Source of the DNA: Candidatus Kuenenia stuttgartensis
GTDB taxonomy: Bacteria > Planctomycetota > Brocadiia > Brocadiales > Brocadiaceae
Direction of reading: 5' to 3'
Assembly: GCF_900232105.1 (NCBI RefSeq)
Contig: NZ_LT934425.1
Location: 3,720,001 to 3,752,000, forward strand
DNA length: 32,000 bases
The translations under genes and the position numbers were made by a program. Shown one piece after another: positions 4,668 to 32,000 of the stretch (position 1 is the stretch's first letter; each line of letters opens with the position of its first letter). The notes under the pieces were generated by a model that saw only the letters and a program-made list of their open reading frames with translations, ran no database searches and was not told the origin of the DNA.

Positions 4668-6036
4668 GGCTCTTCAGGCAAATGAGTGGGTAAATTTTTG
4701 CATTTTTATATCTCTGGTAGCATACAAGTAAGAATTTTTAGCCGAAGATATTCCTCATTTCTCAGACCGTATGCTCTTCTCTGTATCACCCTAATCTTGT
4801 TATTTAAGGCCTTCGACAAAGCCTAATGGGACCTTGTTCTCAGGTCTGCTGTATGCTGCAATGCCATCACAGTGTTTCTCTATCATTTCTGCAAACTTCT
4901 CGTAAGGCTTTAACCGTTGCCACTTCAGCGATTCCTTCCAGTTATCGAAAAACTTCCTTGACCATCCCCCTGTCTTATAGCTCCATAATTGTCCAAAGGA
5001 TTCCTTCAACAGATAGGCAGTGTTGAGCCGTTTGTTTGCCATGAGCAGCTTCTTTAACGCCTTGCGTCCATCAAGGGTGAGGTTCTCTCTGTTTGACAGA
5101 AGCGTATATTTCTGCCCTTTGATATACGAACGTTCTTTACCTGAAAGCCGTGCATATTCCATCTTCCGCACTTTGTCCAACGCTTCCCCAAGATGCCTCA
5201 TTACATGAAACTTGTCATAAAGGATCGCAGCATGAAACGCATTCTCCCTCGTTGACTTCTCAAATGCCTTCCACATATCCATTACTGCCAACCGTATCTT
5301 CTTTACCTTCTTTGCACCAAGCCACTGGTAAAATATATCGAGACTCTCTTTAGACCGATCCTTCCCTCCAAACCAAATCGGTCTTCCACGCTCCAAATCG
5401 CTTACCACTATCCGATAGGTATGCCCTTTCCTTATGGATATTTCGTCTATACCAATTACACGAGGTGCTGCTACTGGATACCTCCGAAGCTGTTTCTTCA
5501 TGTATTCTTTGTCTAATGTCTTCACCGTATCCCAGTCCAGCTTGAACTCCTTCGCCACATCCTTTACGGTCATAGTACGGCACTTCCGTCCTACAGAATA
5601 GGCAAATCGCTTCGTGTAAAAGGGATTGCCCGCAAGCCATTCCAGTTTTTCCCGCTTCACCTTTTTGCACTTCCGACATAATACTCGCCGCACCTCCACT
5701 TCCAGGTAAATCCGTGCATCTCCACAGGATAAATCCCGTACCAGACGCACCTTCTTGTCGTAATGACTCCAATGAATCTTTCCACAACACCCACATCCCG
5801 TTTTTTTTGTGTCCGCTTAAGTCTAATAACACGTGCCTTCGAGTCTCCAAATATCCCCTTAATTTCTGCTCTCGGACTAAACCCGGGGAAACCTATATTC
5901 GTCCAGCAGTCGTCTCTTTTTTTTCATTCAATTAGCATACAGTTTTTTTGCGCATAAAAAACTTCTTTTTTCCCTTATTTTATGCTATGTTGCAGTCAAT
6001 TCATGACTCATTCTTACCCACTCACTTGCCTGAAGC
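4668..6036 (-). mobile_element. ISL3-family insertion sequence (~1.37 kb)
   Basis: The terminal inverted repeats are GGCTCTTCAGGCAAATGAGTGGGTAA (4668-4693) and the reverse complement of 6014-6036 (GCTTCAGGCAAGTGAGTGGGTAA). The GGCTCTTC-type tip is typical of ISL3. An ISL3-type transposase lies inside. No clear target-site duplication was seen. Confidence 0.8.
4800..5927 (-). pseudogene. ISL3-family transposase, N-terminal region broken by frameshifts
   Basis: The 316-aa ORF (4800-5750, GTG) has clear ISL3 transposase features, including the zinc-finger-like CRKC. The missing N-terminus (MKKKRRLLDEYRFPGFSPRAEIKGIF...RLKRT..KKTGCGCCGKIHWSHYDKK) is readable only by changing frame at GGGG 5885-5888 and at T8 5801-5808. 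Confidence 0.75.
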
Positions 6037-6932: not shown

Positions 6933-7833
6933 AAATACCATCGAACAATTCGCCATCGAACTGCTCGAAAAATCAGGCTATCAATACGTCTATGGCCCCG
7001 ATGTTGCGCCCGACAGCGTAACACCTGAGCGACAGTCTTTTGAGGATGTTCTTCTCATTGAGCGGCTTACTGCCTTCGTGGTCCGCATCAATTCGAATGT
7101 CCCTGCGGATGCAAGGGAAGATGCGATAAAGTAATTGCTTTGTCTCAATTTACCCGATCTCATATCGAACAATGAAACTTTTCACCGGATGCTAACCGAA
7201 GGCATTAAGGTAAGCTACCAGAAAGATGGTAGCAGCCGTGGCGACCTCGTATGGCTTATTGATTTCAACTCCCCGGAGAACAACGACTTTTTGGTGTTGA
7301 ATCAGTACACGGTAATCGAGAACCACGTCAACAAAAGGCCTGATGTAGTTCTTTTCGTAAATGGATTACCGCTGGTAATTATCGAGCTAAAGAATCCTGC
7401 CGATGAAAACGCTACTGTTCACTCCGCCTTTCAGCAGATACAAACCTACAAGCAGGCGATTCCCGGATTGTTTACATACAACGGTTTCATCGTTATTTCA
7501 GATGGGCTGGAGGCCAGGGCAGGTACAATTTCCGCCGCTTTCAACCGTTTTATGGCGTGGAAGACGGCTGACGACAAGGTTGAAGCCTCGCCTCTTATTG
7601 GTCAGCTTGAGACACTCGTCAAGGGTCTGTTGAATAAGACTACTCTCTTAGACCTTGTCCGGCATTTTATTGTTTTTGAAAAATCCAAAAGAGAGGACAG
7701 AGAAACCGGTATTATCACTATACAGACAGTAAAGATACTTGCAGCGTATCATCAGTATTATGCGGTGAACAGGGACGTTGAATCAACGATTAGGGCGGCT
7801 GGGTATGTACCCACCCCTAGCCCCTCCCGATAG
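6916..7833 (+). pseudogene. hsdR: type I restriction enzyme R subunit (HsdR), N-terminal ~295 codons with an in-frame stop, truncated before the helicase motifs
   Basis: The N-terminus MNKISENTIEQFAIELLEKSGYQYVYG... and the nuclease-domain pattern RPDVVLFVNGLPLVIIELK are typical of HsdR. An in-frame TAA sits at 7132-7134. Similarity stops near 7800 (..AAYHQYYAVNRDVESTIRAAG), just where the ATP-binding motif I should follow. Confidence 0.8.
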
Positions 7834-9941: not shown

Positions 9942-10703
9942 ATGATATTAGTATTATCCGGCACCGAAGAGGGTAAAGAAATCGTCCGACAACTTCATTA
10001 TGATGGTTTTAATGTAAGGACTACAGTTGCTACTGAATATGGCAGAAAGATGTTTGAACAAATTGGACTTGATACTCTTTGCATTCAAAAGCGTTGTGAC
10101 AAGGAAGGATTTAGAAGACTCATTCAGGAAAAAGGAATCACTGTTTTAATTGATGCAACACATCCTTTTGCGGTTGAAGCGACAAAAAACGCATATGAAG
10201 CATGCAGGGAAGCCGGCATTGACTATTTTCGCTTTGAACGCAAAGACTCCGTGATATCTGATCACCCGCTTATACATAGCGTTAGTTCTGCCGATGATGC
10301 GGTAAAAAAAGCCAGGCAGCTTGGAACTAATATTTTTTTGACAACCGGGATTTCAGGCGTTTCAAAGTTTATCTCTTTAAAAAATGAAAAACAGCTATTT
10401 GTTCGTATACTTCCCATACCGGAACATATCGTGTCGTGCATTGAAATGGGGATATTTCCTAAAAACATTATCGCAATGCATGGCCCGTTTTCAACAGAGT
10501 TAAACAAAGCTATGTTTCAGCAATACGGGATTAATGTCATCGTTTCAAAAGAAAGCGGGGGAGTGGGGGGGGTAAATGAGAAAATTCAGGCAGCTATTGA
10601 GTTAGGTATCGACACGATTCTGATAACAAGGCCTGCATTAGCATTACCGGATGTTTACACAAGTATTACTGATATCCTGAATAAAGTAAAAGCCCTGCGG
10701 TAA
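9942..10703 (+). CDS. cobK: precorrin-6A / cobalt-precorrin-6A reductase
   Basis: MILVLSGTEEG..., IDATHPFA, FLTTG, HGPFS.ELN and SKESGG.GG...K are all CobK/CbiJ signature blocks. Confidence 0.85.
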   Translation: MILVLSGTEEGKEIVRQLHYDGFNVRTTVATEYGRKMFEQIGLDTLCIQKRCDKEGFRRLIQEKGITVLIDATHPFAVEATKNAYEACREAGIDYFRFERKDSVISDHPLIHSVSSADDAVKKARQLGTNIFLTTGISGVSKFISLKNEKQLFVRILPIPEHIVSCIEMGIFPKNIIAMHGPFSTELNKAMFQQYGINVIVSKESGGVGGVNEKIQAAIELGIDTILITRPALALPDVYTSITDILNKVKALR

Positions 10704-18759: not shown

Positions 18760-20790
18760 CTATTCATGGTTTAGATATTTTTTGATTTTTTTAATTAAAC
18801 AAAGCAATGCATCTACAAAACAGCAATAAATGGTCTTGACAAACCCATCCGCCGCACAAATAATTTTCTTTTCTTTATAAAAATGCTCCCATTGCCGCAA
18901 TTTTCTCTTACATCTTAATTCGCGGATACATACACCAAGTTTCGCACCGGCAGAACCATCCAGAAGATCAAGAATGTAAGGGCGCTTGAAACATTTATAG
19001 AAAAAAGCAGCAATTCCCTTTCGAATTCTTTTATAGTGGCGTTGACGTATATAAGTGCGGTTAGTATTTATAAGTGCTTTTATACCTGAAAAAAAATCAA
19101 CAGAAATTAGAACACGAGCTGCCGCATCAGCGGCGTTCCAGCTTTGACAATAACATGCTTGTTTATAGACTTCTTGTATTTTGTTAACAGCTATTTTTTT
19201 GCCTTGCAATCGTTCAATGTCTAAAATAATAATTTCACTCAAAAACCCATCTTCGAAGGAATCATATTCAGCAGATTCAGAACTAAGGCGAGAGAAATCG
19301 CTAAATATTTTTTCAAAATTGGTTTGTTTCTCAATAACGTGTTCTTTTTTCAAGCGTTTGCAATGAGGAGTATTGCTTCGTATTATATCACGTGCTATCT
19401 CAAGATAAAGGCGTGTTATAATTGCCAATTCTCTTCTGTCAAGTAGCAATGGAGGATCAAGAACAATTGGTTCTAGAGTTTTTATTGCATCGTCCAATTT
19501 TCCAAGGCGCCAATAAGTAAAGCCTTTTAGACAAGTGATTTTTGAGGACTCATTGTTAAGATTGTCGTTTACGTTAATTTTTTCTAAATATTGCATTGCA
19601 GAGCAATAGGCAGATACACTTAAAAGAGCATTTGCTATATCCCAATATAGTAGTGGCGTAAGTTTTGTTATAGTATTTTTACTACTATTATAGGATAATT
19701 CGCGTATATATTGAATATGCAAGGAAGGCCATCCTGCAATAACCCCTGGCCCTTTATCAAACATAATATAAGTAGAGTTTCTAAGATTTTCTAAAGAAAT
19801 TTCACTGAACCAATCTTTAAAGTTTTTTTCCCACTCAGGATTTTGGGAATTTGTGCTACGTTTCCATCCATATTCAGCACCTAATTTGAGTAACCAATTA
19901 TCTTTTGTATCTTCAGATGTAAGATTAGTTCTAATCCAATATTTAGTGAAATCTGGTGGTCTCTCACCTTTTTTTACAACCCAGATTAATTTCGCACAAG
20001 TATTATTTAAGTTTCTTAAGTGAGGCGAAATATCAATATCGCCATATCCACTGTAGCCGACGACAAGAACTACTTTATTATTAAGCAGTTTTTCGATATA
20101 GTTGTACTCTTCAAGATATTTTCCTTTTATTAAAGCAGGAGAAGTTGCTTTGATCTTACCCTGAAAAACATCTCCATGAAGCTTAAGTATGTATGGTTCG
20201 TTTTCTAAATTATTTAATGGTTGAGAATGAATTAATAATCGGATGCTATTGTTACACAATTCAATGGCATTATCAAAATTAGTTGTAATAACAGCGCTTG
20301 CCTTCTTTTTCTCAAGTAGAAAGCTAATCGCCGAATGGTTTGAGTTAAATTGTTTTTCTTTGCATTTAAATACAGCTCTTATTAAAGAATCAATAACACT
20401 TGGCTTTTCTTTCGATGGTTGTTCAAACGCATTAATAGAGGAATCTGGAGAACCAACGTCTTTTGAAATAAAGGAAACTTGAATACGATATAAAAGATCT
20501 TCGAATTTAGTATTTATACGAAGAGAAACATATACTCCTTCCGCTAATTCATACGAGTACTTGGCTAACAATCTATCATAGTATGAAGGTGATTTTTCTG
20601 CATCTTCTAATTCTAAAAATAGTTTTAAATTATAAAAGAAGTGCTTTGAAAAGTCAGAAACTGATGGTAGAAAATTTTTTTCAATCCCATTTCCTAACAA
20701 AGAAATTCCGCAACCACAAAAAATGACAAAAGAATCACCAAGCTCATTTCTTAGTTTATTGAATGAGTTTAATTCTATTGCATATGTCAA
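18760..20790 (-). CDS. SIR2_2-family (SIR2-like, PF13289-type) protein with long alpha-helical / TPR-like C-terminal half
   Basis: The SIR2_2 motif order is FVIFCGCGIS (aa 21-30), VITTNFDNAIE (Asn171 codon 20278-20280), ILKLHGD (His205 codon 20176-20178), VLVVGYSGYGDIDISP. The C-terminal ~370 aa are helical and include TPR-like CLKGFTYWRLGKLDDAIKTLEPIV. The TTG start has GAGGAG 11 nt upstream. The gene is markedly AT-rich. Confidence 0.75.
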   Translation of the reverse strand: MTYAIELNSFNKLRNELGDSFVIFCGCGISLLGNGIEKNFLPSVSDFSKHFFYNLKLFLELEDAEKSPSYYDRLLAKYSYELAEGVYVSLRINTKFEDLLYRIQVSFISKDVGSPDSSINAFEQPSKEKPSVIDSLIRAVFKCKEKQFNSNHSAISFLLEKKKASAVITTNFDNAIELCNNSIRLLIHSQPLNNLENEPYILKLHGDVFQGKIKATSPALIKGKYLEEYNYIEKLLNNKVVLVVGYSGYGDIDISPHLRNLNNTCAKLIWVVKKGERPPDFTKYWIRTNLTSEDTKDNWLLKLGAEYGWKRSTNSQNPEWEKNFKDWFSEISLENLRNSTYIMFDKGPGVIAGWPSLHIQYIRELSYNSSKNTITKLTPLLYWDIANALLSVSAYCSAMQYLEKINVNDNLNNESSKITCLKGFTYWRLGKLDDAIKTLEPIVLDPPLLLDRRELAIITRLYLEIARDIIRSNTPHCKRLKKEHVIEKQTNFEKIFSDFSRLSSESAEYDSFEDGFLSEIIILDIERLQGKKIAVNKIQEVYKQACYCQSWNAADAAARVLISVDFFSGIKALINTNRTYIRQRHYKRIRKGIAAFFYKCFKRPYILDLLDGSAGAKLGVCIRELRCKRKLRQWEHFYKEKKIICAADGFVKTIYCCFVDALLCLIKKIKKYLNHE

Positions 20791-21168
20791 ATTTAAAATA
20801 GCTCCTCAAGAAATATTTTTAAACAAAAAAATAAAAGTAGAATTAGCAATAAATATTTTAATTAACAATTAAAATATACCAAATTATATTGATATTTACT
20901 TCTATAGCATTTGTATCTGTTTGAATTTGTAAATATGAAATATTAAAAGTTCTTAAGTCATTGATATTGGGCTGGTTTCCCGCTTTTCCTTGAAAATTAA
21001 GATATTGTTGGCATACATCAATTCTATCATTTTTGATTGATTTTAGCACGAAATTAGCACGCACATCGAACAACCATGACGCTGTCAAAGTTTTCCATAA
21101 GCACATAAAATACAAAGATATGTAAAAAAACGTGGACATTCCCCCTAAAATATTTTATATTATAGGGC

Positions 21169-22928
21169 ATGAACCAGCATACAACACCAATCGATAACAC
21201 ACACAACGAACTACTTCATTCAATTACCGTTCGTCCTGTTTCACAAAACGACCAGGCAAATTGGGACACACTGATGCGCCAGCATCATTACCTTGGATTT
21301 CGTTCTCTCGTAGGAGAATCAATTCGCTACGTAGCGGAATCACAGGGACAATGGCTTGCCTTGATCGGCTGGGCTGCCGCAGCATTAAAATGTACCGTTC
21401 GCGATAAGTGGATTGGATGGCCGCCATTTTTAAAATCGCAACGACTGAAACTCATAGCAAACAACTCACGTTTCCTGATCCTTCCTCAGATACACGTACC
21501 AAACCTTGCCTCCCGTATTCTTTCTCTTAACCTTAAGCGCTTATCACAAGACTGGACTAAGGTCTATGGGCATCCAATCTGGCTTGTGGAGACCTTTGTC
21601 GATCCTCGTTTTTTTAAAGGCGTCTGCTATAAGGCCGCAGGATGGATTTTTTTAGGACATTCAACCGGTTTTGCCAGATCATCACAAGGCTATCTTCTGC
21701 ACAATAAGCCAAAGATGGTCTTTGTTCGCTCATTGAAAGCACAAGTCCAAAAACAACTTAACAACCTTAATCTTACCATACAATTAAGAAAGGAGACAAA
21801 GCCTATGAAATTATCTTTAAAAGATGCGGAATTTCTTGACGAATTATTGCAGCAAATCCCTGAACATCGCATGCCCAGAGGCGTTCGCCACAGGAAACGT
21901 TCTATCCTGGCAATTTCTATCTGTGCTATCATCTGCAATGCCTGGAGCTTTGCCGCCATTGCAGAGTGGGCAAAGCGTTGTCCGCAAAATATGCTAAAAC
22001 GTCTCTCCTGCCGTTATAATACAAAAACGAAACGATACGAACCACCGAGTGAACCTACCATCAGGCGTTTCTTACAGCAGGTGGATGCAGAAGCAGTTGA
22101 TAAAGTCCTCTCGCGTTGGTTTCAATCTGTAGGTGATAAAAGCCTGCCCATTGCGGTTGACGGGAAAACCCTTTGCGGTGCAAGACAGCCTGACGGCAAA
22201 CAGGTACATTTGCTTGCCGCTTTTCTTCATAAACAGGGTATAGTTCTCGCACAAACTCAGGTAGACCGCAAAACAAACGAAATACCGATGGTTCCGGTAT
22301 TGTTTGATGATTTAGACATAAAAGACCGTGTCGTTACTTTCGATGCCTTACATGCGCAAAAGGAAACCGCCCGTTATCTGGTAGAAGACAAAAAGGCAGA
22401 ATATATATTCACGGTGAAAGATAATCAAAAAACCATAAAACAAGCCATCTAGGAACTGAATCTCAGTTCTTTTCCCCCCCTCAGCACGAAACAATTGAAA
22501 AAGGCCATGGCCGCATTGAAATCCGCAGGATTTGGACCAGCACCGAATTAAACGAATAACTTGATTTCCCCTACGTTAAGCAGGTATTTTGCATTCATAG
22601 AATATTTACAAAAGTCAAGACCGGCAAAAAGACCGAGGAAATTGTTTACGGTATTACCAGCCTGACACAACAAAAAGCAAGTCCCAAAACCATTCTTAAG
22701 TTTTCCCGCGGACACTGGTCAATAGAAAATGGACTTCATTATGTGCGTGATACCTCCTTCCGTGAAGACCATTCTCAAATACGCACACAAAATGCCCCAA
22801 GGGCAATGGCTTCTTTGAAGAACCTTGTGGTTGGGCTGTTTCATTTTCTCAATGTACCAAATATTGCAAAGACGCTCAGAAATTTTGCGGCAAGACCTTT
22901 TCTTGCACTTCAAATGCTTCGCTTGTAA
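21169..22928 (+). pseudogene. ISAs1-family (H-repeat type) DDE transposase with DUF4338-like N-terminal domain; disrupted
   Basis: aa ~20-200 read HHYLGFRSLVGESIRYVA..WLALIGWAAAALKCTVRDKWIGW..LIANNSRFLILP..NLASRIL..YGHPIWLVETFVDP.FFKGVCYKAAGW, a DUF4338 pattern. The transposase part then follows (DDE_Tnp_1_assoc-like, and later EKGHGRIEIRR, HWSIENGLHYVRDTSFREDHSQIR). Lesions are a TAG at 22450-22452, a frame change in the C7 run at 22474-22480, and a TAA at 22557-22559. Confidence 0.75.
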
Positions 22929-23986: not shown

Positions 23987-24232
23987 TTATATGCGCATGG
24001 GCAATGGTTGAGGAGGGGTCTCAAAGATATAGGAGTAAATGCACTTCTGCTTTAAGAGACATTCATCGCATTCTTTGCTCTTGATTACGCATACTACAAG
24101 TCTAAAGGCATATCCAAAGCCGCCGCAGAATACGGCGCCTTTATATGCGGGAAAGCGTATTTGGTATTTAGCGCAGATGGTGAACCTGAATCTTACAGCC
24201 CGAAACCTTTCGAACATAGAAATTCCGATCAA
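23987..24232 (-). pseudogene. N-terminal fragment of a Cas6-like RAMP protein (PF10040/DUF2276 type), tentative
   Basis: FRFTICAKYQIRFPAYKGAVFCGGFGYAFRLVVCVIKSKECDECLLKQKCIYSYIFETPP follows the pattern LPxYKGSxLRGxFGxALRxxxC....C..C.L...C.Y..lFE that I recall from that family. The ORF is cut off after 81 codons by the transposase fragment. Confidence 0.35.
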
Positions 24233-25076: not shown

Positions 25077-26321
25077 TCATGACATGTTAGCGATTATTCT
25101 GTCTGCGAACTCTGAACATTTCAGCAATTGAGCGCCGTCCATTTGCCGTTCCAAATCATAGGTTACCGTTTTTTGCCGAATGGTTTTTTCTAATGCCGTT
25201 ATAATTAACATTGCCGCTTTATCCCATCCAAGGTGTTCAAACATCATAACTCCTGATAAAATTACTGAGCCTGGATTAACAATATCCTTTCCGGCATATT
25301 TTGGCGCAGTACCATGTGTCGCTTCGAAGATTGCCGCATTATCGCCAATATTGGCGCCCGGCGCCATGCCTAATCCGCCAACCTGTGCCGCGCAGGCATC
25401 GGAGATATAATCGCCGTTTAAATTCGGAGTGGCAATAACACTATATTCATCTGGCCGAAGGAGTACTTGCTGGAACATTGCATCTGCAATTCTATCTTTT
25501 ATCACTACCTTGTTTTTGGGTGCTTTACCGTTATATTTTTTTTGTACTTCTTCTTCAGTTATTACCGATTTAGAGAATTCTTCTCTGGCGACTTCATATC
25601 CCCATTCACAAAAGGCGCCCTCAGTGTACTTCATGATGTTGCCTTTATGCATCAGGGTTACACTGCATAGCTTTTTATCAATGGCATACTGAATTGCACG
25701 CCTTACTAACCTCTTTGTGCCTGTCACACTTATCGGCTTAATGCCAATGCCGGAATCTTTTCTGATTTTTACCCGGAACTCTTTTTCTATAAAGGCGATG
25801 AGTTTTTTTGCATCGGGAGACCCTTTTTTGTATTCGATACCCGCATAAACATCCTCGGTGTTTTCACGAAAAATGATGACGTTTAATTTTTCCGGTGATT
25901 TAACAGGACTGGGAACACCTTCAAAATAGCGGACAGGACGGACACAGGCATATAAATCGAGTTCCTGGCGAAGTGTGACATTGAGGCTTCGGATTCCACC
26001 TCCAACGGGTGTCGTAAGAGGCCCCTTGATTGCTACCTTGTATTTTTTTATTGCTTTTAAGGTTTCTCCGGGCAACCATTCACCACATTCGTTAAAGGTC
26101 TTTTCTCCTGCCAGTACTTCCAACCAGTGAACCCTTTTTTTGTTTTTATAGGCAATGCTTACTGCCGCATCAAACACCCGTACCGAAGCGTTCCAGATAT
26201 CAGGGCCTGTGCCGTCTCCGCTGATAAACGGAATAATAGGATCATTCGGTACAACCAAATGAGTTTTTTCTTTTGTTATAGCGCTACCTTCCTTTGACAG
26301 TTTTTGTGTTTTTGTTACCAA
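25077..26321 (-). CDS. icd: isocitrate dehydrogenase (NADP-dependent, homodimeric Icd type)
   Basis: The 414-aa protein has [53 protein letters not shown] and [12 protein letters not shown]. The TTG start has GGAGG 7 nt upstream. Confidence 0.9.
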
Positions 26322-26750
26322 GACGAACCCTCCTGTAAATTTGTTCAGTTTTGCAGCAGTTTATAAAAGGCTTTATAGTACATTCATAAGAAGATAAATT
26401 CAATTTAATAGTAACAGGAATTTAGTAAGGCGTCTTGTTATGGGTTCATTGCTTAAATGTTCCTTGCGTGGCTGTATTTTTATGGTACTGATATCCCTGA
26501 GACAACCCCGATATTCATTCATAGTTATTTTTTTAATTTTAATAAAGACTTAACGGGTTGTGCCTGCAAGAAATATTGTATAAATTGGATATTTTGGGCA
26601 TAAGATGTGTGGATAGCTTTTTTTACCTATTAAGGAAATAATATTATTGACAATGTAATTTGTGTCTGCTACCATGATTCACCTTTAGGTGTGCAGTAGA
26701 TTAAGGTATTTTTAGGGCTTTACAGAGAAAATATTATAAGGAGGACTAGG

Positions 26751-27011
26751 TTGAACGACGAAGAGATTGAAAAAGGTGTAACCTCAATAGTTGCAGAGGT
26801 TACAGAGCTGGATGAAAAAGAGATCTGGGAGAAAAGGGATGCGAATTTTTTTCAGGACCTTGAAATTGATTCTCTTCTGGCGCTTGAGATTTTAGCGCTT
26901 ATAGAAAAAAAATTTAAAGTGCAAATTCCAGAAGAAAAACTTGTAGATATTACTTCTTTGAGCGCCACGATTGGTTTAACAAAATCGGTTTTGGCAGAGA
27001 GTGGGAAGTAA
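26751..27011 (+). CDS. acpP: acyl carrier protein
   Basis: The 86-aa protein has the phosphopantetheine site LEIDSLLALE (Ser codon 26871-26873). The TTG start has AGGAGG 6 nt upstream. Confidence 0.85.
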   Translation: MNDEEIEKGVTSIVAEVTELDEKEIWEKRDANFFQDLEIDSLLALEILALIEKKFKVQIPEEKLVDITSLSATIGLTKSVLAESGK

Positions 27012-27059
27012 ATTGGTTATTCGAAAATCATTGTGCAATGAAAGAAAGAGATATTCAAC

Positions 27060-27509
27060 ATGATACTTTTTGAGGAAATACGATCTCTTCTTCCTCAAAA
27101 ATATCCTTTCATATTTATTGATAGAGCGATTGAGTTTGAAGAAAGCAAGAGAATCGTATGCGTAAAAAACATTTCCGGTAATGAACCTGTCTTTGTAGGA
27201 CATTTCCCTGATTTTGCCATAATGCCTGGTGTTTTAATCATTGAGGCGATGGCGCAAGCTTCAATAATCTTGTTCAGAAAGAGTCTTCCTTCCAGAAACG
27301 ATGAAGATGCTGTTTTTTTATTGGCATCAGTCAATAATGCCAGATTTACAAAACCCGTCGTTCCCGGTGATCAGCTTACCATAGAAGTGATTGTTGAAAA
27401 GATTGTTTCAAGAGGTGCTATAGTTCAGTCTGTTGTGAAAGTTCAGGAAAAGGTCGTTGCTAAAGCAGCTTTGACTTTTGGTATTGTGGAAAAGAGTTCG
27501 TTGGTTTAA
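27060..27509 (+). CDS. fabZ: 3-hydroxyacyl-ACP dehydratase (FabZ family)
   Basis: LLPQKYPFIFIDRAIEF, GNEPVFVGHFPDFAIMPGVLIIEAMAQ (catalytic His context) and FTKPVVPGDQL are present. Confidence 0.9.
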   Translation: MILFEEIRSLLPQKYPFIFIDRAIEFEESKRIVCVKNISGNEPVFVGHFPDFAIMPGVLIIEAMAQASIILFRKSLPSRNDEDAVFLLASVNNARFTKPVVPGDQLTIEVIVEKIVSRGAIVQSVVKVQEKVVAKAALTFGIVEKSSLV

Positions 27510-27527
27510 TTAAAATAGCATTAATAT

Positions 27528-28748
27528 ATGGATAAACGAGTCGTTATAACTGGTGTTGGGATGATAACTCCCATTGGTTCGGGGAAAGATGTTTTTTGGA
27601 ACGCCCTTACCGCCGGGGAATCGGGCGTATCTGAAGTGTCATGTATAGATACTTCAGGATACAGAGTACACAAAGGGTGCGAGGTCAAGAATTTTAATTA
27701 TTCAGATTATATTAAAAATGGTGTCTTAAAAGAGATAGGCAAGGGTTCGCAATTTGCTATAGCGGCTACGAAACTTGCGTTAGATGATGCTAAAATGGAT
27801 TTGTCTAAAATTGAATTGGAACGAATGGGGGTGTCTGTCGGGACAACTGCCGGTGAAATACAAATCTTAGAGAAAGTAAATTATATCAGACATAGAGACG
27901 GGGAGGACAAAGTAGCCCCTGATTTGTTTTTAATGCATCCCTGTAACAATATCCCTGCTAACATTGCAATTGAATTTGGTTTGAAAGGCCCCAATACGAT
28001 AATACCCACTGCGTGTGCAGCGGGGAATTATGCTATTGGTTATGCTTACGATTTAATTAGATTTGGAAGAGTAGATGTTATGGTTGCGGGGGGTTCTGAT
28101 CCTTTTTCGAAAGTGGCTTTTACCGGTTTTGCCCGTTTAGGTGCTATAGCGCCAGAAATTTGTCAGCCTTTTGATAAAAATAGAAAGGGCATGATGGTTG
28201 GTGAAGGTGCGGGAATGCTTGTTTTGGAGTCGCTGGAGTCTGCGGAGAAAAGAAACGCTAATGTTTATGCTGAGATTATTGGTTACGGTTTGAGTTGCGA
28301 TGCTTACCATATTACCATACCACATCCGGATGGCGAAGGTGTTATTTCTGCAATGATAAAAGCATTAAAGAGCGCAAACCTCAGGCCTGAAGATGTTCAA
28401 TACATAAGCGCTCATGGTACCGGCACTCCTGCAAATGATAAGGCGGAAACTATTTCAATAAAAAAGGTCTTTGGAGAAAAACCTGAACATCTGGCAATTA
28501 GTTCAATAAAATCGATGATAGGGCATACAATGGGTGCTGCCAGTGTTATAGAAGCAATTGCTTGCGCCTTAGCGGTGCAAAACGACATTATTCCTCCTAC
28601 TATAAATTATGTTACGCCTGATCCTGAATGTGATTTGGATTATGTGCCCAATGTCATGAGAAAACAAGAGGTAAACATTGCGTTGAACAATGCTCATGCC
28701 TTTGGGGGCAATAACAGTTGTCTGGTAATAAAGAAATTTACCAATTAG
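27528..28748 (+). CDS. fabF: beta-ketoacyl-ACP synthase II (FabF type), catalytic triad intact
   Basis: The active-site Cys is in PTACAAG (Cys163 codon 28014-28016). The His residues are in CDAYHIT and [22 protein letters not shown] and [13 protein letters not shown] are also present. Confidence 0.9.
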
Positions 28749-28846
28749 AATGTTTGTAAAGAAAATTTATTTTAAAAATAATTGAAATAATTATATTTAA
28801 GAACGATATTTCCAAAGTTGAAGCGTATAAAATAAGAGGTTTATAA

Positions 28847-30085
28847 ATGGGCGATACGAGGATTGTAATTACAGGAATATCTGTCATCTCCCCTCTTGGA
28901 GAAACGAAAGAGGACTTTTGGCAAAATTTAATAAACGGGGTATCCGGGATTAAACCGGTAACGTTATTTGATGTAACTCATTTTAATAGTAAACAGGCAG
29001 GAGAGATCACGGATTTTGACCCTAAAATTTATTTGGGGAAGAAGGGTATTCGCCATATCGACAGAACGTCCCTTCTGGTATCTTCGGCTACGTGTCTGGC
29101 GATTAAGGATGCTAATCTTGAGAATAATACTTACAATGAAGATGAATTAGGCATCGTTGTAGGCTCTACTTATGGCAGTATTGACAGTATAAGTTCTTTT
29201 GATTTTCAATCACTTAGAGAGGGTCCAAACTATGTAAATCCGATGGACTTTCCTAATACGGTAATAAACGCACCTGCCAGCCGGGCGTCGATTTTTTGCA
29301 AGGCAACAGGTTTAAGTACAACAATTTCTAACGGGGTAACGAGCAGCATTGACGCTATTATATATGCATCTGATTTTCTGCGAATGGGAAGGGTAAAGGC
29401 GGTAATTGCAGGAGGAGTTTATGGATTAGGCCATGACATTTTTTGGGGAGCGCATAGTTCAAAAATCTTGGCGGGGAGTAATAGCGGTACCCTTGAAATT
29501 AGTGCGCCTTTTGATAAGAGACGTAATGGCATGGTCCTGGGAGAAGCCTCTGCGCTGGTTATACTCGAAACTTTAGAGGATGCGTTAAAGAGGAATGCAA
29601 ATATTTACGCGGAAGTAAGGGGTTATGGAACAGCCTTTGATCCTAAGATGTCCACCAGTAAAGAATACCAGACAGACGGCAGCATAAGGGCTATCCGAAG
29701 CGCTTTAGAAGATGCAAAATTAACGCTTCATGATATTTCCTGCATATCTGCTAATGCATATTCCGGAGTATATGGCGATGCAATGGAGGTAAGGGCTTTA
29801 AAAGAAGTATTTGGTATGCGCGCGAAACTTATTCCAGTGACTGCTATCAAATCAATGACAGGTGAATGTCTTGACGCATCAGGGGCTTTACAGACAGTGG
29901 CGGCGGTGATGTCTCTTAACACGCATACTATTCCTCCGACAATTAATTATAAGGAACCTGATCCGGAATGCGACCTAGGTTTGGTTGTTGAAAGAGCGGC
30001 GACTGTTCCGGTAAAAAATGTCCTTATAAATTCATCCTCACGTTTAGGAAATAGCTCTTCCCTGATAGTATCAAAGTTTAAATAA
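28847..30085 (+). CDS. ketosynthase-like protein lacking the Cys-His-His triad (chain-length-factor-like partner)
   Basis: It aligns along its full length with the upstream FabF (RVVITG/RIVITG, GRV..V.AGG, PFDK.R.GM..GE, RNAN.YAE..GYG, IPPTINY..PDPECDL). At the catalytic positions it has Val164 (codon 29336-29338) for Cys, Met for His (DPKMST) and Asn for His (SANAYSG). GECLDASG replaces GHTMGAAS. Confidence 0.85.
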   Translation: MGDTRIVITGISVISPLGETKEDFWQNLINGVSGIKPVTLFDVTHFNSKQAGEITDFDPKIYLGKKGIRHIDRTSLLVSSATCLAIKDANLENNTYNEDELGIVVGSTYGSIDSISSFDFQSLREGPNYVNPMDFPNTVINAPASRASIFCKATGLSTTISNGVTSSIDAIIYASDFLRMGRVKAVIAGGVYGLGHDIFWGAHSSKILAGSNSGTLEISAPFDKRRNGMVLGEASALVILETLEDALKRNANIYAEVRGYGTAFDPKMSTSKEYQTDGSIRAIRSALEDAKLTLHDISCISANAYSGVYGDAMEVRALKEVFGMRAKLIPVTAIKSMTGECLDASGALQTVAAVMSLNTHTIPPTINYKEPDPECDLGLVVERAATVPVKNVLINSSSRLGNSSSLIVSKFK

Positions 30086-30090
30086 GTTTC

Positions 30091-31560
30091 ATGTCATCGA
30101 CCAAGCCTATCAAGCCACATATTCAATCCACGAAAATCGATACATTATATCCTTCTTACGATGTAATTGTAATTGGAGCGGGTATCGCAGGCCTTATTTG
30201 TGCCGCATTTCTTGCTAAAAGCGGGAAAAAGGCACTTCTTATTGAACAGCATTTTATTCCAGGCGGATATTGTACTTCGTTTAAAAGAAAAGGATTTCTT
30301 TTTGATGCTGCTGTTCATCACATCGGTGGTTGTGGTAAATGGAGTGTTGTTGGGCGTTGTTTTAAAATGCTCGGGATAGAGATGGATTTTTACCACTTAG
30401 ATCCCATGGATAATCTGATTTTTCCAACATTCAGCATTGAAATTCCTGCCGACTTAGACGAATATTTATTACGTTTACAGAAAAGGTATCCACATGAAAA
30501 GGACAATATTAAGTGGTTCTTTCAAGACTTTATAAGGCTTTATCGTGCTACATTTCATAATGAAAAAAGTCAGATTATAGAAAAATACAAAGACATGACT
30601 TATGGAATGATGCTCGATCATTTTTTTGATGATAGTGAGTTAAAGATGGTTCTTTCTGGGCAGTGGGGTTATGTAGGTTTAGCGCCGTCGAAAGCATCTG
30701 CGATTGCCATGTCTCAAATGATGATAAATTATCTTAAAGATGGCGCCTTTTTCCCAAAAGGCGGAACGCAAGAGTTTGCAAATGCAATTTTTAGGAAATT
30801 TATTGATTTTGGCGGACACGTTATGTTATCATCCAAAGTCAAAAAAATCTTAAAGAAAGGACCCTCCGTTAACGGTGTTAAATTAAATGATGACAAAGAG
30901 ATACATTCGAGCGTTGTTGTGTCGAATATAGATGCAAGACAGACGTTTTATCATTTGTTGAATGATGAAAATGATGTAGATGCGGTGTACCTTAAAAACA
31001 TTGAAGGAATGAAGGAAAGCTGTTCTTTTTTTCTCTTGTATCTGGGAATTGGAAAAGGGATAGATTTAAATACTTTAAAAAGAGGATTTTATTTATCCGG
31101 CTCAAATTTTGACTCTATTGATAGTGAGTGGATGTATATATCTGTTCCAACCAGTATATGCCAGGCCCTTTCCCCTCAAAATAAACAAATAATCTCCATA
31201 GTAGTGTATAAGAAGGAAGAATTTTATAAAAATGTGACGGATTGGGAATTGCTCAAACAAAATATAGTTTCAAGTACTTTGGAGAGACTAGAAAGTTATT
31301 TACCTGATATAAAAAAACATATAGAAATAATAGAGGTGGCTACTCCTAAAACCCTGGAGCGTTACACATTAAATACCAATGGGGCAGCTTATGGCTGGGC
31401 AGTAAGCGTTGATCAAATATGGGAACAAAGGCTTTCGCCGACAACACCAATTAGCGGCCTTTATTTGGCAGGCCATTGGACAAGACCTGGCCCTGGCATA
31501 TGTGCTGTTGTTTCTTCGGGATGGAGTGTTGCTAATTTAATTTTGAAGAATTGGAGGTAA
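30091..31560 (+). CDS. FAD-dependent oxidoreductase of the phytoene desaturase (CrtI/CrtD-like) family
   Basis: The N-terminus is YDVIVIGAGIAGLICAAFLAKSGKKALLIEQHFIPGGY and the C-terminus is GLYLAGHWTRPGPGICAVVSSG. The start lies 5 nt after the preceding gene. Confidence 0.85.
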   Translation: MSSTKPIKPHIQSTKIDTLYPSYDVIVIGAGIAGLICAAFLAKSGKKALLIEQHFIPGGYCTSFKRKGFLFDAAVHHIGGCGKWSVVGRCFKMLGIEMDFYHLDPMDNLIFPTFSIEIPADLDEYLLRLQKRYPHEKDNIKWFFQDFIRLYRATFHNEKSQIIEKYKDMTYGMMLDHFFDDSELKMVLSGQWGYVGLAPSKASAIAMSQMMINYLKDGAFFPKGGTQEFANAIFRKFIDFGGHVMLSSKVKKILKKGPSVNGVKLNDDKEIHSSVVVSNIDARQTFYHLLNDENDVDAVYLKNIEGMKESCSFFLLYLGIGKGIDLNTLKRGFYLSGSNFDSIDSEWMYISVPTSICQALSPQNKQIISIVVYKKEEFYKNVTDWELLKQNIVSSTLERLESYLPDIKKHIEIIEVATPKTLERYTLNTNGAAYGWAVSVDQIWEQRLSPTTPISGLYLAGHWTRPGPGICAVVSSGWSVANLILKNWR

Positions 31561-31564
31561 AAAT

Positions 31565-32000
31565 ATGAAAAAAATGATGCTCATTAATCCACATAAGCCC
31601 GGGAGGCATGGAGAAGAGAGTATTACGGTAATTGTTCAGATGCCGTTAAACCTTGCTTATATTAAGGCCCTTACGCCTGGTGATTGGGAATTTGATGTTA
31701 TTGATGAAAATATCGAACTGGCAATTGATGATAATGGCGAACTTACTTTCGCGCCGGTGGACCTTGTTTGTATTACATCAGTGACCTACCAATCTCCCAG
31801 GGCATACAAGATTGCTACTGCATGTAAAAGGAAAGGTATGACCGTAATAATGGGAGGGATACATGCGTCTGTAATGCCTGAAGAGGCTTCAAAGTACGTG
31901 GACACTGTTTTTATTGGTGAGGCAGAGGAAGTCTGGCCACGGGTAATAAAAGACTTTGAAGCAGGAAAGTTAAAGAAGGTTTACGATGGTGGTTTACCGC
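31565..32000 (+). CDS. B12-binding-domain radical SAM protein, N-terminal 145 codons (3' end beyond window)
   Basis: The ATG at 31565 has GGAGG 7 nt upstream, and the frame is open to the window end. LINP..NLAYIKALTP..DLVCITSVTYQSPRAYKIATACKRKGMTVIMGGIHASVMPEEA..DTVFIGEAEEVW matches the cobalamin-binding N-domain of class B radical SAM enzymes. The CxxxCxxC motif would lie outside the window. Confidence 0.7.
   Translation, partial: MKKMMLINPHKPGRHGEESITVIVQMPLNLAYIKALTPGDWEFDVIDENIELAIDDNGELTFAPVDLVCITSVTYQSPRAYKIATACKRKGMTVIMGGIHASVMPEEASKYVDTVFIGEAEEVWPRVIKDFEAGKLKKVYDGGLP

Follow-up and report, generated by a model that had tools for sequence, protein, structure and literature searches.

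Introduction

The synthesis of ladderanes, the strained fused-cyclobutane lipids that are biomarkers for anammox bacteria and have been considered as high-energy fuels, is a long-standing open problem. The field's main candidate is 'Cluster I', an operon reported initially by Rattray et al. (2009, PMC2649909) and taken up later by Javidpour (2016), Dietl (2023), and a preprint by Granatino et al. (2026, bioRxiv 10.64898/2026.05.19.726425); it encodes an acyl carrier protein (ACP), a 3-hydroxyacyl-ACP dehydratase (FabZ), an active and an inactive ketosynthase (KS; FabF2 and FabFmut), a phytoene-desaturase-family flavoenzyme (PDH), and a cobalamin-binding (B12) radical-SAM enzyme. Here we analyze a stretch of 32,000 nt from Kuenenia stuttgartiensis (contig NZ_LT934425.1, positions 3,720,001 to 3,752,000; 'the window') that ends with a six-gene operon of this content (26751-32000).

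Two Cluster I proteins, amxACP (Kuste3603) and amxFabZ (Kuste3604), have been crystallized from K. stuttgartiensis. The same genome encodes a canonical FabF (KustD1386) and a canonical fatty acid synthesis cluster (kustd1386-1391) elsewhere (Javidpour, 2016). Cluster I has been described as 'encountered exclusively' in ladderane producers (Dietl, 2023) and as 'unique to ladderane-producing bacteria' (Granatino et al., 2026). An initial annotation of the window, made from the sequence alone, took the operon to be one of the ladderane clusters proposed for Kuenenia; its identities to PDB entries 7auf and 8ayd make it that very cluster. The operon is already known, and there is no novelty in the locus itself; the new part is its distribution, that is, the occurrence of the complete six-gene cassette in genomes beyond the anammox bacteria. 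We found no paper that reports orthologues of Cluster I from bacteria other than anammox bacteria, although our coverage of the literature is incomplete and earlier knowledge is possible.

Results

Identification of the operon

The operon consists of six co-oriented genes on the plus strand with gaps of 48, 18, 98, 5, and 4 nt, exactly as initially annotated. The first encodes amxACP (26751-27011; 86 aa; Pfam PP-binding, E 1.1e-13), which has the DSL phosphopantetheine attachment site. The protein agrees with PDB 7auf at 85 of 86 residues in an alignment that begins at residue 1, which supports the TTG start codon of the gene; the sole difference, N2D, was probably introduced by the expression construct used for 7auf. 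The second gene encodes amxFabZ (27060-27509; Pfam FabA-like), which is identical to PDB 8ayd at every aligned residue (residues 2-149). The next two encode the active ketosynthase KS1 (amxFabF2, Kuste3605; 27528-28748) and its dead paralogue KS2 (amxFabFmut, Kuste3606; 28847-30085), the chain-length-factor (CLF)-like partner of KS1. Both have the N- and C-terminal ketoacyl-synt Pfam domains, match chains B (E 5.8e-245) and C (E 6.3e-226) of PDB 9s5h, respectively, and are ~85% identical to the crystallized amxFabF2/amxFabFmut heterodimer from Brocadia (9s5h/9s5i). The fifth gene encodes PDH (Kuste3607; 30091-31560), a FAD-dependent flavoenzyme (Pfam Amino_oxidase, NAD_binding_8); the sixth, the radical-SAM enzyme (Kuste3608; 31565-32000), is open at the window end, so its N-terminal 145 codons are seen there, including a B12-binding domain (PF02310; 42 bits vs the 32.1 cutoff).

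The exact PDH protein is found on Kuenenia-type contigs with DNA that matches the last 1 kb of the window at 100% identity. In a protein search, the named PDH matches down to 58% identity are from Kuenenia, Brocadia, Jettenia, and Scalindua or have broader Planctomycetota or metagenome labels; no other phylum is represented. The proteins identical to those of K. stuttgartiensis and the PDH matches from anammox genera place the contig in an anammox (Brocadiia) host, as the ladderane reading had presupposed. Because the ACP, FabZ, KS, and PDH identities are joined by a residue pattern in KS2 that matches the one published for Kuste3606 (see below), we have virtually no doubt that the locus is the K. 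stuttgartiensis 'Cluster I' operon, kuste3603-3608.

Carrier protein and dehydratase

The ACP scores far below all of the ACP equivalog cutoffs in NCBIfam (47 vs 70 bits). FabZ clears the cutoff of one FabZ equivalog (NF000582; 152 vs 113 bits) and also gives weak or unmarked ApeP/ApeI-like Pfam matches. The published signature of amxFabZ combines Ile69, where Gly is canonical, with a hydrophobic residue 115 instead of Arg/Lys (Dietl, 2023); the signature is present in the window protein (H48, E62, I69, and I115). In the characterized enzyme, for which a complex with amxACP was reported, Ile69 protrudes into the acyl tunnel; short chains, up to C6-C8, are strongly preferred, with C6 converted much faster than C8 and C10-C12 hardly converted (Dietl, 2023).

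Ketosynthase pair

KS1 and KS2 are encoded by adjacent genes and share 34% identity. The Cys-His-His triad of KS1 lies in the motifs PTACAAG, SAHGTGT, and IGHTMGA. In KS2, aligned to KS1, the active Cys is Val, the first His is Asn, and the second His is Glu, so the 'dead KS' of the initial annotation is real; the substitutions Val163, Asn298, Tyr300, Gly302, Lys328, and Glu333 are exactly those in the Kuste3606 row of Table 2 in Rattray et al. (2009, PMC2649909). FabF2 scores under the NCBIfam cutoff for the fabF equivalog (466.8 vs 493.75 bits). The residue at the Cys position of KS2 is Val in Kuenenia, Brocadia, Scalindua, and Anammoxibacter, Glu in basal Brocadiia and Blastocatellia, and Ser, Gly, or Phe elsewhere; Thr also occurs.

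According to the preprint of Granatino et al. (2026, bioRxiv 10.64898/2026.05.19.726425), amxFabF2 and amxFabFmut are active only together, as a KS/CLF-like heterodimer that decarboxylates malonyl-amxACP and cross-links preferentially with C6-C8 probes. By orthology to the proteins in 9s5h/9s5i, the Kuenenia KS1/KS2 pair is predicted to form the same heterodimer. In the window, the gene for the active Kuste3605 comes first and that for the dead Kuste3606 second. KS-then-CLF is the usual gene order in type II polyketide synthases (PKSs). The same preprint places amxFabFmut 'just upstream' of amxFabF2.

Flavoenzyme and radical-SAM enzyme

The best solved relative of PDH is CrtI (4dgk; E 2.6e-22), and PDH scores under the cutoff of the crtI_fam model TIGR02734 (154.7 vs 238.1 bits). 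In vivo, kuste3607 in place of crtI did not restore lycopene synthesis (Javidpour, 2016).

The radical-SAM gene can be followed past the window end in a locus with identical DNA (L001), as the initial annotation had suggested: the full-length protein has 486 aa, with a B12-binding domain, a Radical_SAM domain (PF04055), and the CxxxCxxC motif in the form CPNYCDFC. The motif is kept in all of the radical-SAM orthologues that were aligned. Against every named class B family, Kuste3608 scores 65-87 bits, where the cutoffs are 251-650; its best NCBIfam scores, 87 bits, are to the PhpK-type model (cutoff 600) and to TIGR04072 'rSAM_ladder_B12' (cutoff 360), and its best solved relatives have E ~1e-9. 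We rejected membership in TIGR04072: given the 87 bits of Kuste3608 and the 57-78 bits of the non-anammox orthologues and paralogues described below, the model represents a different paralogue family.

Past the window end in L001 (12994-14547), a 42-codon open reading frame (ORF) is followed by the dihydrolipoyl dehydrogenase gene lpdA (TIGR01350; 503 bits vs the 409 cutoff) and then by transposases. A terminator scan after the radical-SAM gene saw none, including between this gene and lpdA. Most Kuenenia- and Brocadia-type loci have lpdA behind the cassette, and Scalindua-type, basal, or non-anammox loci do not; we left lpdA out of the cassette definition. In the L001 extension, the radical-SAM gene is not followed by genes for polyunsaturated fatty acid (PUFA), aryl-polyene, or carotenoid synthesis; a PUFA or aryl-polyene context downstream had been named in the initial annotation as one that could undo its reading. 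A gene for precorrin-6x reductase (CbiJ/CobK; cobalamin synthesis) lies at 9942-10703, 16 kb upstream of the B12 radical-SAM operon; no functional link is evident.

Distribution in anammox bacteria

We scanned one genome per species in GTDB r232 with a PDH profile, kept the best 80 loci, and mapped all six proteins on them. Among these 80, the complete collinear six-gene cassette is present in 52 other anammox-type species-representative loci, including those of Kuenenia, Brocadia, Loosdrechtia, Scalindua, Anammoxibacter, Subterrananammoxibius, and deep-branching 'Brocadiia'; because the same order is complete in so many loci, it is not due to chance. A further locus, labeled Thermodesulfobacteriota (L036), was rejected as a non-anammox case; it is an 8-kb contig with Scalindua-level identity and a G+C content (GC) of 0.39 and is probably mis-binned.

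Cassettes outside anammox bacteria

Three complete collinear cassettes among the best 80 loci are from genomes with non-anammox labels. L070 (4651-10957) is on a 59.8-kb contig (GC 0.50) of a genome labeled Blastocatellia (GCA_035652355.1), with ACP/FabZ/KS1/KS2/PDH/radical-SAM identities to the window proteins of 73/56/70/51/46/63%. L072 (4870-12747) is on a 381-kb contig (GC 0.58) labeled Acidobacteriota (CAVTHF010000011.1), with identities of 51/46/58/37/43/57% in the same order. L071 (551-14482) is on a 61-kb contig (GC 0.69) with a putative 'Spirochaetales' label (CAZYOL010000003.1), with identities of 56/49/54/38/43/58%.

Flanking genes indicate the hosts of L070 and L072, and the base composition of the cassettes is native. 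In L070, a seryl-tRNA synthetase (SerRS) gene is located 3 kb upstream of the cassette, and Blastocatellia alone are found among the best named matches of its product; this arrangement of SerRS gene and cassette recurs in three independent assemblies (JGI, ENA, NCBI; Blastocatellia loci L070 and L086-L088). In L072, a flanking gene encodes a 919-aa acetate-CoA ligase/GNAT (Pat-like) protein whose named matches are Terriglob*. In all three loci, cassette genes and flanks have the same GC (0.50, 0.69, and 0.58 in L070, L071, and L072), and in L071 the third-codon-position GC is 0.81-0.95.

The residues described above for the anammox proteins recur in these cassettes. In L070, L071, and L072, the Cys-His-His triad is intact in KS1, and none of its residues is left in KS2, where Glu, Ser, or Gly takes the place of Cys; the radical-SAM protein has CxxxCxxC, and the ACP has DSL. 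The FabZs of these three loci have Ile or Ala at position 69 and Leu or Ile at position 115; Gly never occurs at the former, nor Arg or Lys at the latter.

A metagenome scan seeded with the non-anammox PDHs identified additional copies. Those of the Terriglobia type are on ~8 contigs (L093, L095-L099, L139, and L168) with GC 0.54-0.63 and PDHs that are 67-90% identical to that of L072; the high-GC type is represented by L100-L102. Taken together, the Terriglobia cassettes are those of L072, L093-L099, L139, and L168. In the Terriglobia type (one genome and the ~8 metagenome contigs), a FabG gene directly follows the radical-SAM gene, and a divergent FabH gene is also present. The high-GC type adds a second Kuste3608-like radical-SAM gene, a second KS/CLF-like pair, and a divergent enoyl-CoA hydratase gene together with two more B12 radical-SAM genes. 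No version of the cassette includes an enoyl reductase, and the anammox versions have no ketoreductase.

In related Terriglobia and Blastocatellia contigs (L090-L092 and L173-L177), the cassette is absent beside the same flanking genes; it is therefore patchy, that is, accessory, in these classes. It is also rare, since the closest non-anammox PDH representatives (P0121-P0130) are from clusters of one to five members each. Three additional loci (L081, L163, and L171) were rejected as the same cassette: their KS, CLF, PDH, and ACP genes are in another order, with the radical-SAM gene distant or missing, so they are related only. The initial annotation had proposed to look for conserved synteny in anammox genomes and for restriction to ladderane producers; the synteny is conserved, but at the gene level the restriction did not hold, given the cassettes in Blastocatellia, Terriglobia, and the 69% GC lineage.

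In some anammox-type loci from deep-branching or marine lineages, namely L067 (7311-9310), L054 (1487-2518), and L082 (1855-2781), an extra KS/dead-KS pair (40-55% identity) or an extra, distant B12 radical-SAM gene (23%) lies no more than a few kb from the cassette; these extra genes echo the duplications in the high-GC non-anammox cluster.

Phylogeny of the cassette

We concatenated the six proteins of 56 loci (1977 columns) and built a neighbor-joining tree with midpoint rooting, in which all of the anammox-type loci form one clade (100/100 bootstraps), L071 and L072 group together (100/100 bootstraps), and L070 is sister to the anammox clade under the midpoint rooting. Since the non-anammox copies branch outside the anammox clade, they are not recent exports from crown anammox bacteria. 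On this tree, the cassette either predates Brocadiia or entered them at their base, with relatives in other phyla; the tree is simple in method and rooting and does not give the direction of transfer.

Other features of the window

The operon is preceded by a 429-nt intergenic leader (26322-26750, plus strand), which the initial annotation had put at ~430 nt of non-coding DNA; it contains no ORF of at least 50 aa and separates the operon from its divergent neighbor icd (25077-26321, minus strand). The Shine-Dalgarno sequence AGGAGG (26739-26744, plus strand) ends 6 nt before the TTG start of the ACP gene, in agreement with what had been annotated. In a consensus scan, the best plus-strand promoter-like site is TTGACA (26647-26652), a 17-nt spacer that ends in TG, and TACCAT (26670-26675); the whole site (26647-26675, L001 6557-6585) has 10 of 12 consensus matches and is a pattern match alone. 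An Rfam scan of the whole window, including the leader, gave no riboswitch or other RNA family, and a repeat search around the locus gave nothing that bears on the operon. The GC of the window is ~0.41.

An 81-aa ORF (23987-24232, minus strand) matches the N-terminal 66 of 296 positions of a Cas6 profile (PADLOC, E 1.4e-20); it looks like the remnant of a cas6 gene in a 1.5-kb stretch (~23.5-25.0 kb) that has no long ORFs. Next to this ORF is an inverted repeat of 23 nt (24246-24268/24380-24402); no CRISPR array is seen there. A SIR2_2 domain is found in a 676-aa protein (18760-20790, minus strand), which also weakly matches Argonaute-associated SIR2 defense proteins (PADLOC, E 2.8e-11); its gene overlaps a low-GC stretch (20001-21000, GC 0.29) and adjoins a gene for a 427-aa DruA-domain/DDE transposase fusion (21169-22452). 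This region may be a defense or mobile-element island. Near an ISL3-family transposase gene (4800-5750, minus strand), a 232-aa fragment of a type I restriction R subunit (7135-7833, plus strand) covers profile positions 72-281 of 1029, that is, the N-terminal part alone; hsdR appears to be truncated and was probably disrupted by insertion.

Discussion

A possible role in ladderane synthesis

We favor, with moderate confidence, a direct role for Cluster I in ladderane fatty-acid synthesis in anammox bacteria. In support, four of the six proteins are characterized, the full B12/Radical_SAM protein is present, and the cassette is conserved in 52 anammox-type genomes. Cluster I is a dedicated module for lipid synthesis on a chain that remains bound to the carrier protein. 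As shown in the literature for identical or near-identical proteins, amxACP is the private carrier that holds the growing chain; the ketosynthase heterodimer primes synthesis by decarboxylation of malonyl-amxACP and favors C6-C8 acyl chains; and amxFabZ dehydrates the 3-hydroxyacyl-amxACP, preferably up to C6-C8 because of the tunnel narrowed by Ile69. Since the anammox cassette has neither an enoyl reductase nor a ketoreductase, the product is probably a short enoyl- or polyenoyl-ACP, with FabG borrowed from housekeeping fatty acid synthesis; the missing enoyl reductase and the recruitment of FabG and FabH in the Terriglobia version fit an ACP-bound unsaturated intermediate.

The CrtI-family flavoenzyme and the B12 radical-SAM enzyme may then modify this chain, the former by desaturation or isomerization and the latter by radical C-C or C-H chemistry. 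Polyene formation and radical cyclization or methyl chemistry, which the initial annotation had suggested for this pair, are candidate roles. One option is that the cassette supplies the C6-C8 linear part, which a radical-SAM step would join to the ring system; another is that the cassette would build the cyclobutanes stepwise during elongation.

Several observations weigh against a ladderane role. Later literature still states that there is no direct evidence that links the cluster to ladderanes (Dietl, 2023; Granatino et al., 2026; a 2026 review), in keeping with the initial remark that the chemistry is unproven; nor does the literature hold a direct experimental link (Dietl, 2023; Granatino et al., 2026). 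The statement in the initial annotation that heterologous expression gave no ladderanes is likewise borne out: when kuste3603-3608 were co-expressed in anaerobic E. coli, all six proteins were detected, and neither ladderanes nor new fatty acids were formed (Javidpour, 2016). Kuste3607 is without CrtI activity (Javidpour, 2016), no polyunsaturated or cyclopropyl intermediates have been detected in anammox bacteria (Dietl, 2023), and isotope labeling does not fit polyene-folding routes (Dietl, 2023). Kuste3608 has no close characterized relative, so its chemistry cannot be read from homology. At the gene level, exclusivity to ladderane producers no longer holds, and its loss weakens the guilt-by-association case. 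The initial annotation had held that a syntenic operon in bacteria that make no ladderanes would speak against its reading; in part such an operon is now at hand, that is, at the level of genes, which weakens the ladderane reading and does not refute it.

Alternative readings

A less probable but serious alternative is that the cassette is a general KS/CLF-dehydratase-flavoenzyme-B12 radical-SAM module, not specific for ladderanes, that makes some other specialized acyl chain (methyl-branched, unsaturated, or otherwise cyclized); in anammox bacteria it would give no more than a precursor or the linear C6-C8 tail, with the ring chemistry located elsewhere, e.g., in kuste2802-2805 or kuste3335-3352. 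The non-anammox genomes and contigs speak for it, with the same gene order, dead KS2, active KS1, CxxxCxxC motif, and amxFabZ-type residues 69 and 115; so do the Blastocatellia-like SerRS beside L070 and the Terriglob*-like Pat-like gene beside L072, the match of cassette GC and third-codon-position GC to the flanking host DNA, and the position of these copies outside a monophyletic Brocadiia clade (100/100 bootstraps). The short-chain preferences of amxFabZ and the KS/CLF pair and the E. coli expression of the Kuenenia cluster, in which no ladderanes were made (Javidpour, 2016), point the same way. The best NCBIfam matches of Kuste3608, PhpK and HpnR, are methylases. Most characterized class B radical-SAM enzymes are methyltransferases. 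Against a general module, no anammox lineage sampled is without the cassette, and its expression is high (Javidpour, 2016), whereas elsewhere it is patchy and rare (missing in related contigs; PDH clusters of one to five members); also, no alternative product is known, and the non-anammox carriers might make ladderane-like lipids too.

More conventional pathways fare worse. PDH belongs to the CrtI/CrtISO superfamily, FabF2 is about as near to the ishigamide polyene KS (6kxd; E 2e-101) as to canonical FabFs, and FabZ has ApeP/ApeI-like matches, so the operon could be a carotenoid, aryl-polyene, or PUFA pathway of unusual appearance. We rejected this very improbable reading on the neighboring genes, the PDH score, and the lycopene test: no phytoene synthase, pfa, or aryl-polyene hallmark genes are located up- or downstream, where lpdA and transposases come next; PDH does not reach the crtI_fam cutoff and makes no lycopene in vivo (Javidpour, 2016); and no PUFA-type polyketide synthase was found in the genome (Rattray et al., 2009, PMC2649909). 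The conserved linkage and the dead KS leave practically no room for core fatty acid synthesis, to whose families ACP, FabZ, and FabF belong. FabZ does pass one equivalog cutoff, but ACP and FabF2 fall below theirs, KS2 is dead, the six-gene synteny including PDH and the radical-SAM gene (with gaps of 4-5 nt) is conserved across phyla, and the canonical FabF KustD1386 and cluster kustd1386-1391 are separate in the same genome.

Implications of the wider distribution

We consider it improbable that the non-anammox carriers, which are soil Acidobacteriota (a Terriglobia and a Blastocatellia lineage) and the 69% GC lineage, make ladderane or related cyclobutane lipids. If they do, ladderanes are not anammox-specific biomarkers, and the pathway is open to study in aerobic, potentially culturable hosts with their own FabG and FabH. 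The orthologous Terriglobia/Blastocatellia cassettes with a self-contained FabG and FabH set and the high-GC version, in which four B12 radical-SAM paralogues are joined by a second KS/CLF pair, are new handles for expression, reconstitution, and lipidome matching; anammox bacteria are genetically intractable.

Comparison with known systems

The window operon and Cluster I of the literature are the same locus, with the same gene order (ACP-FabZ-FabF2-FabFmut-PDH-rSAM), identical amxACP and amxFabZ, and no difference at the locus. Clusters in Desulfotalea psychrophila (Rattray et al., 2009, PMC2649909) are a non-anammox precedent in that fatty acid synthesis genes are found beside radical-SAM and phytoene-dehydrogenase-like genes; however, the syntenic pairs named there (Kuste3343/DP1855 and Kuste3342/DP1853) belong to the kuste3335-3352 cluster, whereas the copies reported here are full six-gene Cluster I orthologues. 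No Desulfotalea locus is among the best 80 loci of the PDH-profile genome scan.

With the CrtI/CrtISO family (4dgk), PDH shares the FAD Rossmann motif GxGxxG and a full-length Amino_oxidase fold match; it differs in its score under the crtI_fam cutoff, in the lack of phytoene-to-lycopene conversion, and in a fatty-acid rather than isoprenoid context. Kuste3608 resembles the class B radical-SAM enzymes (PhpK, HpnR, HpnJ, BchE, and TsrM) in its N-terminal B12-binding domain and CxxxCxxC core but is far under all named-family cutoffs, and the scores give no assignment as methylase, cyclase, or ligase.

The ketosynthase pair resembles the KS/CLF of type II PKSs, above all of highly reducing ones such as ishigamide Iga11/Iga12 (PDB 6kxd): an active KS is followed by an inactive, Cys-less paralogue, the orthologues crystallize as a heterodimer, malonyl-ACP is decarboxylated, and a dedicated ACP and dehydratase are present without an enoyl reductase. 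In contrast to those systems, Cluster I combines the pair with a CrtI-like flavoenzyme and with a B12 radical-SAM enzyme instead of cyclases or aromatases, and the KS sequence is nearest FabF. The CLFs of aromatic type II PKSs typically have Gln at the Cys position; the dead subunit of Cluster I, unlike them, does not.

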